DNA of 35,813 nucleotides, filler included, from an uncultured virus (IMG/VR IMGVR_UViG_2061766007_001539) (taxonomy: Duplodnaviria; Heunggongvirae; Uroviricota; Caudoviricetes). It is 2 parts of one record of this genome, joined end to end, with 100 filler letters (N's around TTAATTAATTAA, not from the genome) between each part and the next. Parts side by side here need not be neighbours in the genome. Positions count along the whole stretch, not along the records: positions 1 to 18,864 come from IMGVR_UViG_2061766007_001539; 1 more part is not named here. The stretch is one strand, 5' to 3'. Below are positions 2,297 through 21,975 of this stretch, piece after piece. Within the stretch, counting starts at the first letter, position 1. Each line of letters begins with the position of its first letter. A model generated the notes under the pieces. That model had not been told where the DNA came from and searched no databases. It saw only the letters and a list, made by a program, of their open reading frames with translations. The position numbers were made by a program, and so were the translations under genes.

Positions 2297-2508
2297 AGTC
2301 AATGACAGAAAAACTTGTGATGATAGGTATGATCGCATTCTATGCAATCATGATGGTGATATGCCTCTGGTGCTTATGGTGCATATACAAGGCAGTACTG
2401 GAGATCATACGCGAAACGATCATAGATTTTGAGGAGGGGAAAGGGAAATATGAAGAAGAAACAGAAGAAATCATGCGCTCCGGTGAGACTGAGAGAGGAA
2501 CCGTCCTT
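2293..2508 (+). CDS. Small membrane protein (runs into gap)
   Basis: Hydrophobic N-terminus; homologues at 24656-24820 and 30215-30493. Confidence 0.65.
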
Positions 2509-2605
2509 NNNNNNNNNNAAAGCTTCCGGAACGTGAGATAAACGAAATGAAGCAGACCGTTTCATGCTTTTACTGGAAGGCTGAAAAGAGATTATCGGAG
2601 GGAAT

Positions 2606-2971
2606 ATGAGAAGAGCGAAATACGGAAACAAAAAGTGCCAGTACATGGGCATTGTGTTCGACTCCAAGCATGAAATGGAGCGGTACCGGGAGCTGTACCT
2701 TCTGGAGCGGGCCGGTGAGATCAGCGACCTGCAGACACAGGTTCCATACCTGCTTATTCCGCCACAGTTCGACGACGCTGTTGCGGATCATGATAAAAAG
2801 AAAAAGCCGAAACTCCTTGAACGCAAGTGCGAGTATATCGCTGACTTTGTATACAGGGACAGCGAAGGCAGGCTGGTGGTAGAGGACGCCAAGGGAACGA
2901 AAACGAAGGAGTACATCATCAAGCGAAAGCTGATGCTGCACGTGCATAAAATCAGGGTGGTGGAAGTATGA
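2606..2971 (+). CDS. DUF1064 family protein (predicted PD-(D/E)xK nuclease)
   Basis: KYGNKK..FDSKHE..Y.ADFVY..VVEDAKG..Y.IKRKL signature. Confidence 0.9.
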   Translation: MRRAKYGNKKCQYMGIVFDSKHEMERYRELYLLERAGEISDLQTQVPYLLIPPQFDDAVADHDKKKKPKLLERKCEYIADFVYRDSEGRLVVEDAKGTKTKEYIIKRKLMLHVHKIRVVEV

Positions 2972-4920: not shown

Positions 4921-5138
4921 NNNNNNNNNNAACGTGAAGACGATCAGGCAGAAAAAGACCCCCGTCAGTGAAACGAGGGTTTATTTAAATGAAAAATCAG
5001 GGGGAAAAGACTTATGTTAAAAAGGGAATTAGAGATCCTGCTTAATGATGCGAACCTTGCCATTAAGGATCTTGAACAGGAAAACACGAACTTAAAATCA
5101 CGTAACGAAGCACTCACAAAGTTTATNNNNNNNNNNAA

Positions 5139-8301: not shown

Positions 8302-8689
8302 ATTTTTTCTCCTGGCCTTAAATCAGGAATTCGGTTTCGGGCCGGAACGCCTTAAGCGCGTGATTCATCGGTACAACGAATTGACGGAAGAATACTCCGT
8401 AATGAGAAACGACGGATTCACCTACGACGAAATCAATCAGAAAATGCGTGAGGCGCTGGCGTCTATCGGTATAGATCCGGATGATGTTTACGTCGGAAAG
8501 AATGATTTCTACGACGCAAAACGCCGGAAAAGATATATCGACAAAGGACAGGAAGTAAGCAGAAAAGAAGCTGAGGAGGTCAAAAAGAAGTTTGAACAGT
8601 TCAGGTCTTTATCCGAATCAGCTTACGAGAAAAGAGATCTTAATCAGCTTATTGCAGCGAAGATCAGAAAGGGACTCACGAACGCTTGA
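8302..8689 (+). CDS. Second allele (partial) of 7617-8129
   Basis: Near-identical protein with synonymous changes. Confidence 0.7.
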
Positions 8690-9021
8690 CCAAGCGTCAG
8701 GAGGTTCTGAGAAATAAGCTATTGGAAGGAACAAGCCTCTTCAAAACAGTTGAGGCTTTACGCCTTTACATACAGGAAAATGAGAANNNNNNNNNNNNNN
8801 NNNNNNNNNNNNNNNNNNNNNNNNNNNNNNNNNNNNNNNNNNNNNNNNNNNNNNNNNNNNNNNNNNNNNNNNNNNNNNNNNNNNNNNNNNNNNNNNNNNN
8901 NNNNNNNNNNNNNNNNNNNNNNNNNNNNNNNNNNNNNNNNNNNNNNNNNNNNCTACGGTCGCAACAGCATCAACAGAAAACACAAGGCGGCGCTTGACAG
9001 AATCATCGAGATCGGCGCTGA
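8686..9021 (+). CDS. Possible RinA/ArpU-like (sigma region-4-like) late activator, gapped
   Basis: Last gene of the early operon; C-terminus YGRNSINRKHKAALDRI resembles the terminal HTH helix; middle missing. Confidence 0.5.
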
Positions 9022-9115
9022 NNNNNNNNNNGTTATCCTACTTGTCACCCGACGCGCAGGAAACGAAAAGTAGATCCCCGTCCCTGAAACGGGGGTTTAT
9101 TTTTTTTAGGAATTG

Positions 9116-9262
9116 TGCTATAATATATCTGTCAGATAGGCATTAGCCGCACTGAAAGTTATTACATGTTGTGATTAAGTTATAGAGGCTGATGTCTGTC
9201 TGTCTGTCGTAGAAAGTTATCAGGAATGTTTTCATCAAAATAGACTCCTTTTATTTGATTTT
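9116..9262 (+). ncRNA. Candidate structured sRNA (copy 1)
   Basis: TGCTATAAT, 16-bp stem CAGATAGGCATTAGCC/GGCTGATGTCTGTCTG, terminal hairpin + T run; second allele at 10395-10561. Confidence 0.55.
9143..9235 (-). CDS. 30-aa small ORF MKTFLITFYDRQTDISLYNLITTCNNFQCG, antisense to the sRNA
   Basis: AAGGAG RBS; frame intact in the second copy, 10442-10534. Confidence 0.4.
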   Translation of the reverse strand: MKTFLITFYDRQTDISLYNLITTCNNFQCG

Positions 9263-10024: not shown

Positions 10025-10040
10025 NNNNNNNNNNAATTCG

Positions 10041-10561
10041 TGTTATACTGGAATTGTAATGGTTCGGGTAGAGCTATTCATCAATTAAATTGTACATATG
10101 GGAGAAAGCATCTGTTGGCGCAGGTGCTTTTTTCTTGACATGAGCACCTGACTGCATTATAATATAACCGAAGACTGGATCTGCAAACAAGTTTTCAAAG
10201 TTCATTTTTGAGAGAGACATCTGACCCCCGTCAGGTGTTTTTCTTTTTCGCTTGCATTGCCGGCAGAGATGTGATATAATATACATGTCATTACCGGATA
10301 ATGACGATAAAAGCAGAATACTGCCCAAGGTCACCCGATCATAGGGTAGAAAATGAGTCCCCGTCCCTGAAACGGGGATTTATTTTTTTAGGAATTGCGC
10401 TGAATAAGGAAATATGCTATAATATATCTATCAGACAGGCATTAGCCGCACTGAAAGTTATTACATGTTGTGATTAGTTTATTGAGGTTGGTGTCTGTCT
10501 GTCTGTCGTAAAAAGTTATCAGGAATGTTTTCATCAAAATAGACTCCTTTTATTTGATTTT
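10041..10561 (+). ncRNA. Cluster of four promoter-short transcript-terminator units (candidate sRNAs)
   Basis: TGTTATACT 10041; TTGACA-17-TATAAT 10135-10163; TTGCAT-17-TATAAT 10252-10280; TTGCGC-17-TATAAT 10395-10423; each followed by hairpin + T run. Confidence 0.65.
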
Positions 10562-10611: not shown

Positions 10612-10666
10612 ATTATAACCACGGCGCAAGCTCTATATTTTGTGCCGTGGTTATAGTGTTATAATA
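10612..10666 (+). promoter_or_regulatory. Hairpin/TATAAT leader of 68-bp array A
   Basis: TATAACCACGGC..GCCGTGGTTATA inverted repeat then TGTTATAAT; reverse-complement copy at 14050-14118. Confidence 0.6.
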
Positions 10667-10672
10667 ACGCTG

Positions 10673-11152
10673 TCAGCGTTCCGGCTCTTGCTCTCTCTCC
10701 CTCTGTGGCTGTCTCAGCACGTGAGACGATGTGCAGCCGGTCAGCGTTCCGGCTCTTGCTCTCTCTCCCTCTGTGGCTGTCTCAGCACGTGAGACGATGT
10801 GCAGCTGGTCAGCGTTCCGGCTCTCGCTCTCCGTCCCTCTGTGGCCGTCTCAGAGCNNNNNNNNNNNNNNNNNNNNNNNNNNNNNNNNNNNNNNNNNNNN
10901 NNNNNNNNNNNNNNNNNNNNNNNNNNNNNNNNNNNNNNCACGTGAAACGCTGTGCAGCCGGTCAGCGTTCCGGCTGTCGTGCTCCGTCCCTCTGTGGCTC
11001 TCTCAGGACGTGAGACGCTGTGCAGCCGGTCAGCGTTCCGGCTCTTGTTCTCTCTCCCTCTGTGGCCGTCTCAGAGCGTGAGACGATGTGCAGCCGGTCA
11101 GTGTTCCGGCTGTCGTGCTCCGTCCCTCTGTGGCCGTCTCAGAGCGTGAGAC
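10673..11152 (+). repeat. 68-bp tandem array, type A (about 6 visible units, gapped)
   Basis: CCGGCTC at 10681, 10749, 10817; unit contains GTCTCA-N5-TGAGAC and AGCCGG-N8-CCGGCT. Confidence 0.95.
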
Positions 11153-11162
11153 NNNNNNNNNN

Positions 11163-11375
11163 TGTGCCGGAATGTGTCCGACTGTATCGGCTCACGCTCT
11201 CAGGCTCTGCCCTGCTGTACGCTTCCACAGCGTGCCGGATCATGTCCGGCTGTATCGGTTCATGCTGTCCGGTTCTCTCCGGCTGTACGCTTCCACAGCG
11301 TGCCGGAACGTGTCCGGCTGTATCAGCTCACGCTCTCAGGCTCTGCCCTGCTGTACGCTCTCACAGCGTGCCGGA
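11163..11375 (+). repeat. 68-bp tandem array, type B (about 3 units, gap-flanked)
   Basis: Reverse complement of the units at 13508-14040. Confidence 0.95.
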
Positions 11376-11387
11376 NNNNNNNNNNGG

Positions 11388-11421
11388 AAAGCGGCACTCG
11401 AGGTTTTCGGGTGCCGTTTTT
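11388..11421. terminator. Intrinsic terminator, probably bidirectional
   Basis: AAAGCGGCACTCGA/TCGGGTGCCGTTTT stem. Confidence 0.7.
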
Positions 11422-11470
11422 CTATTCACCGATACCGGCAGAAGATAACCCCCTGCCGGCAAACCGGAGT

Positions 11471-13212: not shown

Positions 13213-13507
13213 NNNNNNNNNNNNNNNNNNNNNNNNNNNNNNNNNNNNNNNNNNNNNNNNNNNNNNNNNNNNNNNNNNNNNNNNNNNNNNNNNNNNNNNN
13301 NNNNNNNNNNNNNNNNNNNNNNNNNNNNNNNNNNNNAATCCGAGCGGGAAGCGGTCATTTTTTTATAATTCCAGATAAAGGGAAATCAAAATCAGCCGAA
13401 AAGTCGCATTTTCAGACCTGACCATGCAACCTCGGGTTGACCAGTTGACCGGATCCGAGACCGGCACGGCCCGCCGGAGATCTCCGGAGCATTGGAACCG
13501 GTCCAGT

Positions 13508-14040
13508 TACAGCCGGACACGTTCCGGCACGCTGTGGAAGCGTACAGCAGGGCAGAGCCTGAGAGCGTGAGCCGATACAGTCGGACACATTCCGGCACGC
13601 TGTGGAAGCGTACAGCAGGGCAGAGCCTGAGAGCGTGAACCGATACAGCCGGACACGTTCCGGCACGCTGTGAGAGCGTACAGCAGGGCAGAGCCTGAGA
13701 GCGTGAACCGATACAGCCGGACACGTTCCGGCACGCTGTGAAAGCGTACAGCCGGAGAGATCCGGACGGCGTGAGCCGATACAGCCGGACATGATCCGGC
13801 ACGCTGTGAGAGCGTACAGCAGGGCAGAGCCTGAGAGCGTGAGCCGATACAGTCGGACACATTCCGGCACGCTGTGGAAGCGTACAGCAGGGCAGAGCCT
13901 GAGAGCGTGAACCGATACAGCCGGACACGTTCCGGCACGCTGTGAGAGCGTACAGCAGGGCAGAGCCTGAGAGCGTGAGCCGATACAGTCGGACACATTC
14001 CGGCACGCTGTGGAAGCGTACAACAGGGCAGAGCCTGAGA
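13508..14040 (-). repeat. 68-bp tandem array, type B (about 8 units, complete)
   Basis: CGGCAC at 13525, 13593, 13661, 13729, 13797, 13865, 13933, 14001. Confidence 0.97.
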
Positions 14041-14049
14041 ACCTGGACA

Positions 14050-15500: not shown

Positions 15501-16061
15501 TTAAAAAATGTTTATGTAGGTATCGAAGCCGGCAAGCTGATAAAAACCGGTTGTTTCAAGTGTGTTTGCGTATGCTTCATAATCGAAGTAGTCGCGGAGG
15601 TGTTCCGGCATTTCATCTATATATCCCATTTCCCACGCGACAACCTCAGCAACTGCGCGCATTGTGGGACAGTCGGAAAAAACGCGGAAACGTTCATTTT
15701 CTATTATTTCGATTGCGCTTGAAATATCCCCGCCGGAGTAATCAAGTGCAGCCGTGAAAATCTTTGTTGCGTCATCGCCGTAATTGCGGAACAGCTCCGC
15801 GATAACGTCAACGGCGTTCTTTAATTCGCTGATGTTCTCATAATTGCTGAGGCGTGAAGTGTCGATTGTTGCGTCATAGTCAGCGATGAAAAGCTCATCG
15901 AAGCACGCGCACGGATTAAACGCAATCTTTTCTGTTGCTTTTTCGATTTCGTCGGCGTCCATGTTTACAAGGTCGATCCATTCACCACAGAGGCGGCCCT
16001 CTGTATATTTTCTGAGGTTGCCCACCCAGATCTTAAACTCAAAAACGTTTGTATTTGTCAT
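15501..16061 (-). CDS. ardA: Antirestriction protein ArdA
   Basis: IWVGNL.KY.EG.L.GEWI.L, E.FIADYD, YENISEL, PEHL.DYFDYEAYA..L motifs; acidic. Confidence 0.9.
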   Translation of the reverse strand: MTNTNVFEFKIWVGNLRKYTEGRLCGEWIDLVNMDADEIEKATEKIAFNPCACFDELFIADYDATIDTSRLSNYENISELKNAVDVIAELFRNYGDDATKIFTAALDYSGGDISSAIEIIENERFRVFSDCPTMRAVAEVVAWEMGYIDEMPEHLRDYFDYEAYANTLETTGFYQLAGFDTYINIF

Positions 16062-17857: not shown

Positions 17858-17935
17858 CTTGCAACCTTGCAACCGATCGGCCCGAAGCGGCCGAAGGGTT
17901 GCAAGGCTCCCCGGGGTCAAAATGTCTAATTTTTA
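17858..17935 (+). other. Conserved hairpin block ending CCCCGGGGTCAAAATGTC; possible packaging-proximal site
   Basis: Near-identical at 21901-21975; TTGCAACC/GGTTGCA stem with inner TCGGC/GCCGA. Confidence 0.4.
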
Positions 17936-18242
17936 AACGAACCCGTACGCATNNNNNNNNNNNNNNNNNNNNNNNNNNNNNNNNNNNNNNNNNNNNNNNN
18001 NNNNNNNNNNNNNNNNNNNNNNNNNNNNNNNNNNNNNNNNNNNNNNNNNNNNNNNNNNNNNNNNNNNNNNNNNNNNNNNNNNNNNNNNNNNNNNNNNNNN
18101 NNNNNNNNNNNNNNNNNNNNNNNNNNNNNNNNNNNNNNNNNNNNNNNNNNNNNNNNNNNNNNNNNNNNNNNNNNNNNNNNNNNNNNNNNNNNNNNNNNNN
18201 NNNNNNNNNNNNNNNNNNNNNNNNNNNNNNNNNNNNNNNNNN

Positions 18243-21504: not shown

Positions 21505-21975
21505 ACGCAGCAGCAGCAGAGGAGCGACGACGGCGAGGAGTGACCAGGAACGACGGCGGAAGAGATCAGCAGCAGAAGAGGAGCGACGGCGGAAGAGATC
21601 AGCGGCGCGGAGCTGGTCGAGGTCCTGAAGTGCTGACCAGTGACGACGGCGGAAGAGATCAGCAGCAGGAGAGGAGCGCGGAAGAGATCAGCAGCGACGG
21701 GCGGAAGAGTTCCGGCACGGATCCGGAGCGCGGGCGACTGGTCCGAAGGTCTCCGGCCGGACTTTGTGCGGTATTATCTGCGGAAGAGATCAGCGCGGCG
21801 CGGCACTGGCCGGAAGGGTCCGAAGAGATCAGCAGGAGCGCGCGGCGACTGGTGCCGGCAGAGGGCGGAAGATGTCGAGGAACTGCAGCAGGTCCGAGCG
21901 CTTGCAACCTTGCAACCGATCGGCACGAAGCGGCCGAAGGGTTGCAGCACTCCCCGGGGTCAAAATGTCTAATTT
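21505..21975 (+). repeat. Purine-rich degenerate repeats (GACGGCGGAAGAGATCAGC) plus conserved terminal block
   Basis: GAAGAGATCAGC about 6 times; allele of 17470-17935. Confidence 0.75.

Follow-up and report, generated by a model that had tools for sequence, protein, structure and literature searches.

In lambdoid prophages, small RNAs (sRNAs) are encoded in the slot 3′ of Q/PR′, as described in the accessible parts of two studies (PMC4104026, PMC7547250). Among these, AsxR and AgvB (EcOnc01-03) form convergent pairs in E. coli; they are Hfq-bound, 51–60 nt long, have shown targets, and combine related 3′ ends with variable 5′ bodies (PMC4104026, accessible part). In Shiga-toxin phages, StxS is a short RNA made in the lysogen from PR′-tR′, a constitutive promoter and terminator located after the late regulator (PMC7547250, accessible part). 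The promoters described for the Ltr superfamily of late activators, which includes the LtrB (DUF1492) family, require direct repeats and are silent without the activator, and the accessible part of that study describes no sRNA (PMC3753634). Stand-alone structured RNAs with an intrinsic terminator, namely skipping-rope, drum, FuFi-1, and DUF3800-I, have been found comparatively (PMC5737381, accessible part). Most of the phage sRNAs described so far appear to be proteobacterial, and a term search of the main text of a 2025 review returned no occurrence of Gram-positive, Firmicutes, Clostridi-, or Bacillus (PMC12197685).

Here, we analyze a stretch of 35,813 nucleotides from an uncultured virus (IMG/VR IMGVR_UViG_2061766007_001539), hereafter the window, which contains a 527-base array (10035–10561) of four tandem units. 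Like AsxR and AgvB, the array places predicted short prophage RNA genes at a conserved position behind a late regulator, and a CRTCTG/CAGRYG terminator stem is common to different bodies. Unlike them, it occurs in a Clostridia phage as 2–4 co-directional, interlocked units with predicted RNAs of about 60–180 nt, and it has no sequence similarity to them. Since host phylum, regulator, orientation, and sequence all differ, the array is not a member of the lambdoid sRNA families. As in the LtrB family, the gene upstream is DUF1492/sigma4-like and ends the early cluster, whereas the array promoters differ from described Ltr promoters in having consensus −35 boxes and no room for repeats between units. 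The units share a stand-alone, terminator-ended architecture with skipping-rope, drum, FuFi-1, and DUF3800-I, but have no Rfam match at gathering score.

Results

As assembled, the window combines sequence from several strains of one phage in a scaffold full of gaps, with many 75–97% repeats across N runs. The unit junctions of the array are backed piecewise by contigs from other sequencing runs and by a related locus, L009. Where labelled, the runs containing the array region are gut or bovine-gut metagenomes, and 14 runs carry at least half of the sampled words. Since the window includes genes for a replication initiator, a DnaC-like protein, and a resolvase, as well as integrase and cI-like genes at its end, the phage is taken to be temperate. 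Its closest late-activator relatives lie in metagenome-assembled genomes (MAGs) named Ruminococcus sp. (L024) and Clostridia bacterium (L025), and the link to a Ruminococcus/Clostridia host comes from MAG binning.

The array of promoter-to-terminator cassettes is real, conserved, and modular. In agreement with the original prediction, it contains one extended −10 promoter and three −35/17/−10 promoters, at 10041, 10135, 10252, and 10395, and each later −35 sits directly after the preceding terminator, beginning 1–6 bases past its U run. All promoters face the plus strand. That of unit 1 has its extended −10 at 10041–10049 and its −35 position inside an N gap, so that it cannot be told whether it is an extended −10 only; the others read TTGACA-17-TATAAT (unit 2), TTGCAT-17-TATAAT (unit 3), and TTGCGC-17-TATAAT (unit 4). 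The strict pattern TTG-N20-TAYAAT, picked after the region had been inspected, matches three times in the array, compared with a shuffle mean of 0.014, and none of 5,000 shuffles reaches three. A looser promoter scan over 8–12 kb found no excess (5 found vs 5.5 expected) and listed only the promoter at 10135 inside the array.

The folding z-scores of units 1 to 4 are −5.1, −3.4, −4.5, and −3.5, respectively. Units 1–3 are predicted to form small 5′ hairpins followed by a 15–17-pair terminator, that is, a strong hairpin with a U run. The CATCTG/CAGGTG terminator stems of units 1 and 2 and the three further small hairpins of unit 3 are present as described earlier. Two earlier statements hold in part. 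A terminating hairpin and T run was described for every unit and is found in units 1–3, but unit 4 has no canonical terminator inside the array. Likewise, there is no sense ORF of 31 aa or more, as claimed, but a minus-strand ORF of 30 aa with a good ribosome-binding site (RBS) lies under unit 4.

Related loci were collected by a metagenome scan with a neighboring 162-aa protein (11 loci) and by a genome scan with the activator (4 loci). Seven of the 15 (L005, L006, L007, L009, L011, L024, and L025) continue beyond a close homologue of the activator, and 2–3 interlocked units are present in each of them; of the others, L001–L004 stop short of this point, such a gene is missing downstream in L008, and L010, L026, and L027 are distant relatives. 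A blastn search of INPHARED phages gave no match. Across 10 related loci (50 kb), 16 of the 17 matches to TTG-17-TGnTATAAT fall inside arrays. Promoters, whose loss among relatives had been named as a point of refutation, are kept while the bodies diverge, and so are the intrinsic terminators, that of unit 4 being found in relatives only.

Among these relatives, unit 2 is retained, while units 1, 3, and 4 are gained, lost, or replaced. The order is 1-2-3-4 in the window, 2-3-4 in L009, and 2-3 in L025, where the contig ends; in L024, a different body precedes 2-3 and the hairpin of unit 4 is deleted, and L005, L006, L007, and L011 have unit 2 together with a “type D” body. The accessory unit 1 (10041–10134, plus strand) comprises the extended −10, a predicted RNA of about 80 nt, and the terminator with the CATCTG/CAGGTG stem. 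It is missing from L009 and from a contig of run X17, is replaced by the other body in L024, and occurs as a 90–95% variant in run X18. Type D is a fifth body type, which the window does not contain (L005 2915–3016, L006 2700–2801, L007 1956–2050, L011 7540–7636); it has a conserved AAGTCGTCTA at its 5′ end and AAGACTCCG ahead of a CATCTGA/TCAGRTG terminator.

In a pattern scan, tandem pairs of such promoters also turned up in 14 viral contigs. In one of these, from an unrelated phage (L109, about 2340–2840, minus strand), four tandem promoter-RNA-terminator units with C-rich bodies lie between genes that, from a reading of their translations, are cI-like and integrase-like. The tandem architecture therefore recurs and is not unique to the window.

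The gene upstream of the array (8686–9022, plus strand) is late-activator-like (DUF1492/LtrB, RinA-like); it is interrupted by scaffold gaps in the window and full-length in L009 and L024. The full-length protein matches Pfam DUF1492 (E 1.3e-3), sigma70 r4 (E 1.2e-3), and TIGR01636 (E 2.3e-3), all below the curated cut-offs of Pfam and NCBIfam, and among PHROGs phrog_36 (E 1.2e-13) and phrog_248 (E 1.8e-8). Judged from these sequence matches, the gene probably belongs with the LtrB family of late activators (PMC3753634, accessible part). Right after the activator stop, some relatives carry a conserved inverted repeat around GTGCA-A5/6-TGCAC (L005 1645–1675, L007 1752–1785, L011 6808–6835, L024 6133–6155), with compensating changes in its flanks; it could be an operator or an RNA hairpin.

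Unit 2, the core or “type A” unit (10135–10246, plus strand), has a 5′ hairpin that exposes GGATCTGCAA at 10177–10186 and a terminator at 10210–10245. This 10-base loop is invariant in 10 loci, namely the window, seven clade loci, and two more distant prophages: C288 of genome G002, whose activator is 61% identical and which was noticed through the motif list, and L139, which was found by a pattern that included the loop motif itself. The loop lies 13 bases after the −10 in nine of the ten loci and 15 bases after it in one. It is present in all eight loci that have a close activator homologue and downstream DNA (L005, L006, L007, L009, L011, L024, L025, and L135).

The hairpin that carries the loop covaries. 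In sets of 7–8 related sequences from about five lineages, from which the structure itself was derived, two-sided changes affect 7 of 10 pairs of the 5′ stem (8 sequences, with L006 and L025 omitted as near-duplicates and L139 out of register by a 3-base insertion) and 8 of 15 pairs of the terminator (7 sequences). None of 500 shuffles is as good as the 5′ stem, whose cells pair in 81% of cases, compared with 69% in shuffles and 29–58% in slid controls. The bases CUGCA are predicted to be unpaired (probability 0.8–1.0) in all eight folded 5′ ends; in the minimum-energy fold of the full-length C288 RNA, the loop instead forms a longer helix with sequence further downstream. Since the loop motif lies in different reading frames or in none, it is not coding and specifies no peptide. 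A peptide reading of units 1 and 2 was rejected because their frames are not conserved. With its covarying stem and differing frames, the unit 2 structure appears to be under selection without a conserved peptide, and so does that of unit 4, in which allele changes leave the plus-strand pairs intact.

Covariation across related phages, which the original prediction had proposed as a check, is therefore seen in both the stem and the terminator of unit 2. Together with the DUF1492/RinA-like gene upstream, the kept promoters, and the swapped units, it supports the central claim of that prediction, a phage-encoded modular sRNA cluster after a late activator. We consider it probable that the units are transcribed, selected RNAs.

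Within the searches given here, the type A RNA motif appears to be undescribed; it has no Rfam match and is linked to one late-activator subfamily. No match to its loop was found near 33 more distant Ltr genes. In IMG/VR, the promoter-plus-loop pattern gave 12 matches, all judged to be chance, and the strict pattern gave none. The loose pattern occurs in 6 of 401 family genomes, where the five non-self matches lack the unit anatomy, and the strict pattern in 1 of 401 class genomes, which is the self match; 2 of 32 genus genomes have the pattern, one of them as a chance coding match. A covariance model, R2, matched in 2 of 150 genomes, which were self and a bare terminator. Altogether, these searches found no chromosomal host copy of unit 2 in the genomes covered. 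Neither the type A motif nor arrays of this kind in Ruminococcus phages came up in a literature search, to which most subscription papers were closed.

C288 and L139 each have one long type A unit, followed on the same strand by holin, terS, and HNH genes, a layout that matches the StxS leader. This keeps alive the main rival explanation, in which unit 2 serves in cis as a late leader of the lambda PR′-tR′ kind: from a constant promoter, an RNA would be made and halted at the terminator, and an LtrB-type protein would enable read-through by way of the loop or its DNA, the other units being duplicated leaders or barriers. Such a leader would fit a motif that tracks with one activator subfamily at a nearly fixed distance from the −10, and ordinary Ltr loci, as shown below, carry one such module. 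In the window's clade, however, the genes after the array all face the opposite strand for at least 2–4.7 kb, so that the co-directional late genes that follow the terminator in PR′-tR′ and in C288 and L139 are absent there; the regulator, being of the DUF1492 type, also differs from that of StxS. Characterized Ltr proteins, moreover, are DNA-binding activators acting at direct repeats (PMC3753634, accessible part), and a literature search on ArpU and antitermination found, by the titles listed, no paper on such a mechanism.

The cis leader also has to be set against a separate conserved element in C288 and L139. There, a nearly identical element of about 50 bases stands after the type A terminator and just before the holin gene (L135, the C288 locus, 13712–13760; L139 2141–2095, minus strand), and it looks like a regulated, activator-dependent late promoter, for which we regard it as a candidate. 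A search of the window and of 10 clade loci did not turn it up. On balance, we judge the cis-leader explanation of unit 2 to be unlikely.

We are more doubtful still that the unit 2 loop is an RNA signal for the DUF1492/LtrB subfamily, the protein being a Q/N-like antiterminator loaded via the nascent hairpin rather than an ordinary DNA-binding activator, and would expect this to be wrong. If it were true, the holin and terminase genes would be opened in the conventional relatives, whereas in the window's clade, polymerase would read through the convergent anti-defence block, and the resulting antisense RNA would shut that block off en route to the late genes; the extra cassettes would then be a swappable RNA toolkit.

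The origin of the cassettes may lie in ordinary Ruminococcus prophages. There, a short leader with one extended −10, and in most cases a terminator, separates the Ltr gene from the first late gene: of 22 loci, 19 have the extended −10 within 70 bases, and 15 have the terminator within 130 bases (the counts leave aside 11 of 33 loci not re-found by tblastn), and the start regions of these modules resemble that of unit 1. We infer that the cassettes are copies of this post-Ltr promoter-leader-terminator module, which would have gained consensus −35 boxes and new bodies.

Unit 3, an accessory “type C” unit (10252–10390, plus strand), consists of a promoter, small hairpins, a C-rich tract GGTCACCC (10329–10336), and a terminator (10359–10389) built on a dispersed phage repeat. 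It has homologues in L009, L024, and L025 (truncated) and at window position 9032; its exact hairpin has no match in IMG/VR. The homologue at 9032 is part of a second strain allele (9032–9262, plus strand), in which the 3′ portion of a diverged unit 3 and its terminator are followed by a unit 4 with the extended −10 kept and the −35 deleted. The stretch 9032–9075 had been taken for a different sequence preceding the same terminator. Since it shares both GTCACCCGA and the terminator with unit 3, we correct this to a diverged, gap-truncated unit 3.

The membership of the unit 3 terminator in a dispersed repeat family is one of the points that suggest a transcription barrier, with the array insulating the convergent junction, the remaining cassettes being leftover and empty, and the short RNAs being by-products. 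The array is indeed placed where rightward early genes meet the leftward gene block, and a near-identical duplication of an Ltr promoter-terminator module exists at L041. Such a barrier does not, however, need consensus promoters, an invariant 10-base loop, or a covarying 5′ stem, and we find this explanation very unlikely.

Unit 4, also accessory (10395–10561, plus strand), has a promoter and a long G-U-rich hairpin (10432–10501), followed by about 60 bases without a terminator before a gap cuts off its 3′ end. It folds on the plus strand only (z −3.5, compared with −0.3 for the minus strand). A homologue in L009 ends at a strong terminator about 25 bases past the point where the window gap begins, and the hairpin is deleted in L024 and in X17, where the deletion spans 127 bases. 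The same terminator hairpin follows unit 4 in L009, in L024, and at the loose end of the X17 contig; its copy at 11388–11424 (plus strand) in the window has, as the sequence comparison indicates, been displaced by scaffolding.

The small ORF beneath unit 4 (10442–10534, minus strand) has an AAGGAG RBS; its length is 30 aa in the two alleles of the window but 18 aa in L009 and 5 aa in L024. The tail of unit 4 is an exact antisense of the RBS and start codon of this decaying ORF. The unit could be read as the antisense antitoxin of a type I toxin-antitoxin pair whose toxin is the small ORF, for it covers the whole ORF with its RBS, and the RBS and first codons are kept in all four loci. The varying length of the ORF and the lack of a hydrophobic helix in its peptide nevertheless speak against a toxin, the allele changes preserve the plus-strand pairs of the hairpin while altering the protein, and only one unit would be accounted for. 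We regard a type I pair as highly improbable and the ORF as a likely gene remnant.

Three RNA-labelled runs contain contigs at depth 2–3 that cross terminators and promoters (10044–10185 and 10300–10546); contigs cannot give ends or strand. Since they cross unit borders, these contigs fit DNA carry-over or read-through, and neither the RNA runs (X18–X20) nor small word shares are counted as expression evidence.

The original prediction had named host-gene regulators, antitoxin mimics, or RNA anti-defence as possible functions, and here our comparisons with Rfam, CRISPR repeats, and host sequences bring up no antitoxin or sRNA family, no CRISPR-repeat likeness, and no conserved host target. In Rfam 15, no unit reaches the gathering score; 11 weak partial matches at E up to 10 are not credible, the best being RAGATH-25 at 20.6 bits, compared with a cut-off of 49, on the opposite strand of the terminator. 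Against the repeats of 15 CRISPR arrays (20 cas2 loci in related genomes), no unit beats shuffles: in the best case 6 of 100 shuffles are as good, and for the window units 40–77 of 100. Read by eye, most of these repeats resemble those of types I-C and II; repeats of types V and VI were not knowingly among them. Within these repeat types, an RNA anti-CRISPR (Cracr) was rejected by this test of 15 arrays, and the Cracr lists of 10.1101/2024.10.29.618823 may bear on the question.

These results also bear on the possibility that the RNAs are protein decoys or anti-defence RNAs, such as solitary CRISPR repeats, CsrA sponges, or antitoxin or tRNA-loop mimics. A short invariant loop on a freely changing stem does resemble a protein ligand, and the array abuts a leftward block with an anti-restriction gene (15504–16061, minus strand; phrog_2059, E 1e-21). 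Phage CRISPR-like RNAs with their own terminator have, in addition, been reported for a Ruminococcus Cas12a system (10.1101/2024.10.29.618823, accessible part). On the other side stand the CRISPR and Rfam comparisons, within the repeat types given above, and the finding that CsrA (PF02599) occurs in none of three linked genomes, all incomplete. There is also at most one GGA loop per unit, where a CsrA sponge would have several per RNA. The decoy explanation is therefore, in our judgment, unlikely. Mimicry of a tRNA anticodon loop by unit 2 was rejected by eye, since such a loop has 7 bases and that of unit 2 has 5.

The leftward block differs in content among relatives; in L007 (3106–4659, minus strand), it includes amidoligase and gamma-glutamyl cyclotransferase (GGCT) genes.

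With regard to base-pairing targets, the invariant loop has 14 exact complements or copies in two host-bin genomes (G001 and G002), mostly inside unrelated coding regions and with no gene in common, and none of its wobble-tolerant sites in the phage loci is conserved. Of the four units, each scored on 64 phage and 60 host translation starts, unit 3 alone gave an outlier: its pairing with the start regions of genes 153 and 454 of the window spans 8+4 bases and reaches −13.4 kcal/mol, compared with −5.9 for the next start in the window, −7.6 for the best of 60 host starts, and −8.1 for the best of 150 other starts. Before correction for four units, this pairing is equaled by 6 of 120 shuffled bodies. 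The two genes are adjacent and unrelated and have an identical 19-base translation-start region (134–152 and 435–453). The L009 allele of unit 3 pairs more weakly with these starts (−8.5), and genes 153 and 454 were not found in G001, G002, or IMG/VR, their only distant homologue (L011) having a differing start. Given the shuffles that do as well, the single shared start sequence, and the lack of the genes in relatives, this antisense match to two phage ribosome-binding sites is no more than a suggestive lead.

Discussion

Our best explanation, to which we give an even chance, is that the four self-contained cassettes are stand-alone sRNA genes, expressed by the housekeeping polymerase in the lysogen and acting in trans by base pairing. 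Under this explanation, the promoter, short leader, and terminator module found after the Ltr genes of ordinary Ruminococcus prophages would be the source of the cassettes, and the host RNA polymerase would transcribe each of them into an RNA of 60–180 nt. The loop of unit 2 would be the seed that pairs with a putative target. Units 3 and 4 would block translation, plausibly that of early genes of the phage itself, through C-rich tracts that are complementary to ribosome-binding sites. The array would thus place stand-alone sRNA genes in a late-gene “moron” slot, as a Gram-positive parallel of StxS and the anti-sRNAs of lambdoid phages.

If so, the slot behind Ltr genes collects swappable RNA-only cassettes in the way the moron slot of lambdoid phages does. 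The locus provides an RNA motif that Rfam lacks, which combines an invariant loop of 10 bases with a covarying stem and is tied to one late-activator subfamily. It also offers a specific and testable way to ask how rumen prophages control themselves or their hosts, and whether any Ltr protein acts through RNA.

Several other repeats were observed along the way. The dispersed repeat of 25–30 bases occurs at window positions 4959, 9076, 9893, 9918, 10359, 11449, 12404, 12429, 15469, and 19155, as well as in L005, L006, L007, L009, L011, and L024. It is made up of a C run, 12–13 bases, GG, and TTTA with a T run, and mostly stands just upstream of leftward genes. Copies with a disrupted hairpin still preserve the spacing, and the minus-strand G run sometimes doubles as an RBS; the repeat may act at the DNA level, as a promoter or a recombination site of the leftward block. 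Tandem repeats of 68 bases, of two kinds and in both orientations, occupy 10660–11375 and 13487–14048 in different strains, and GC-rich repeats related to them occur in L005, L006, and L011. Finally, at 17905–17953 and 21952–21975, in two strains, GC-rich repeats end in a CCCCGGGG-containing motif just before gaps, a region that we take, by analogy, to be a candidate packaging site.
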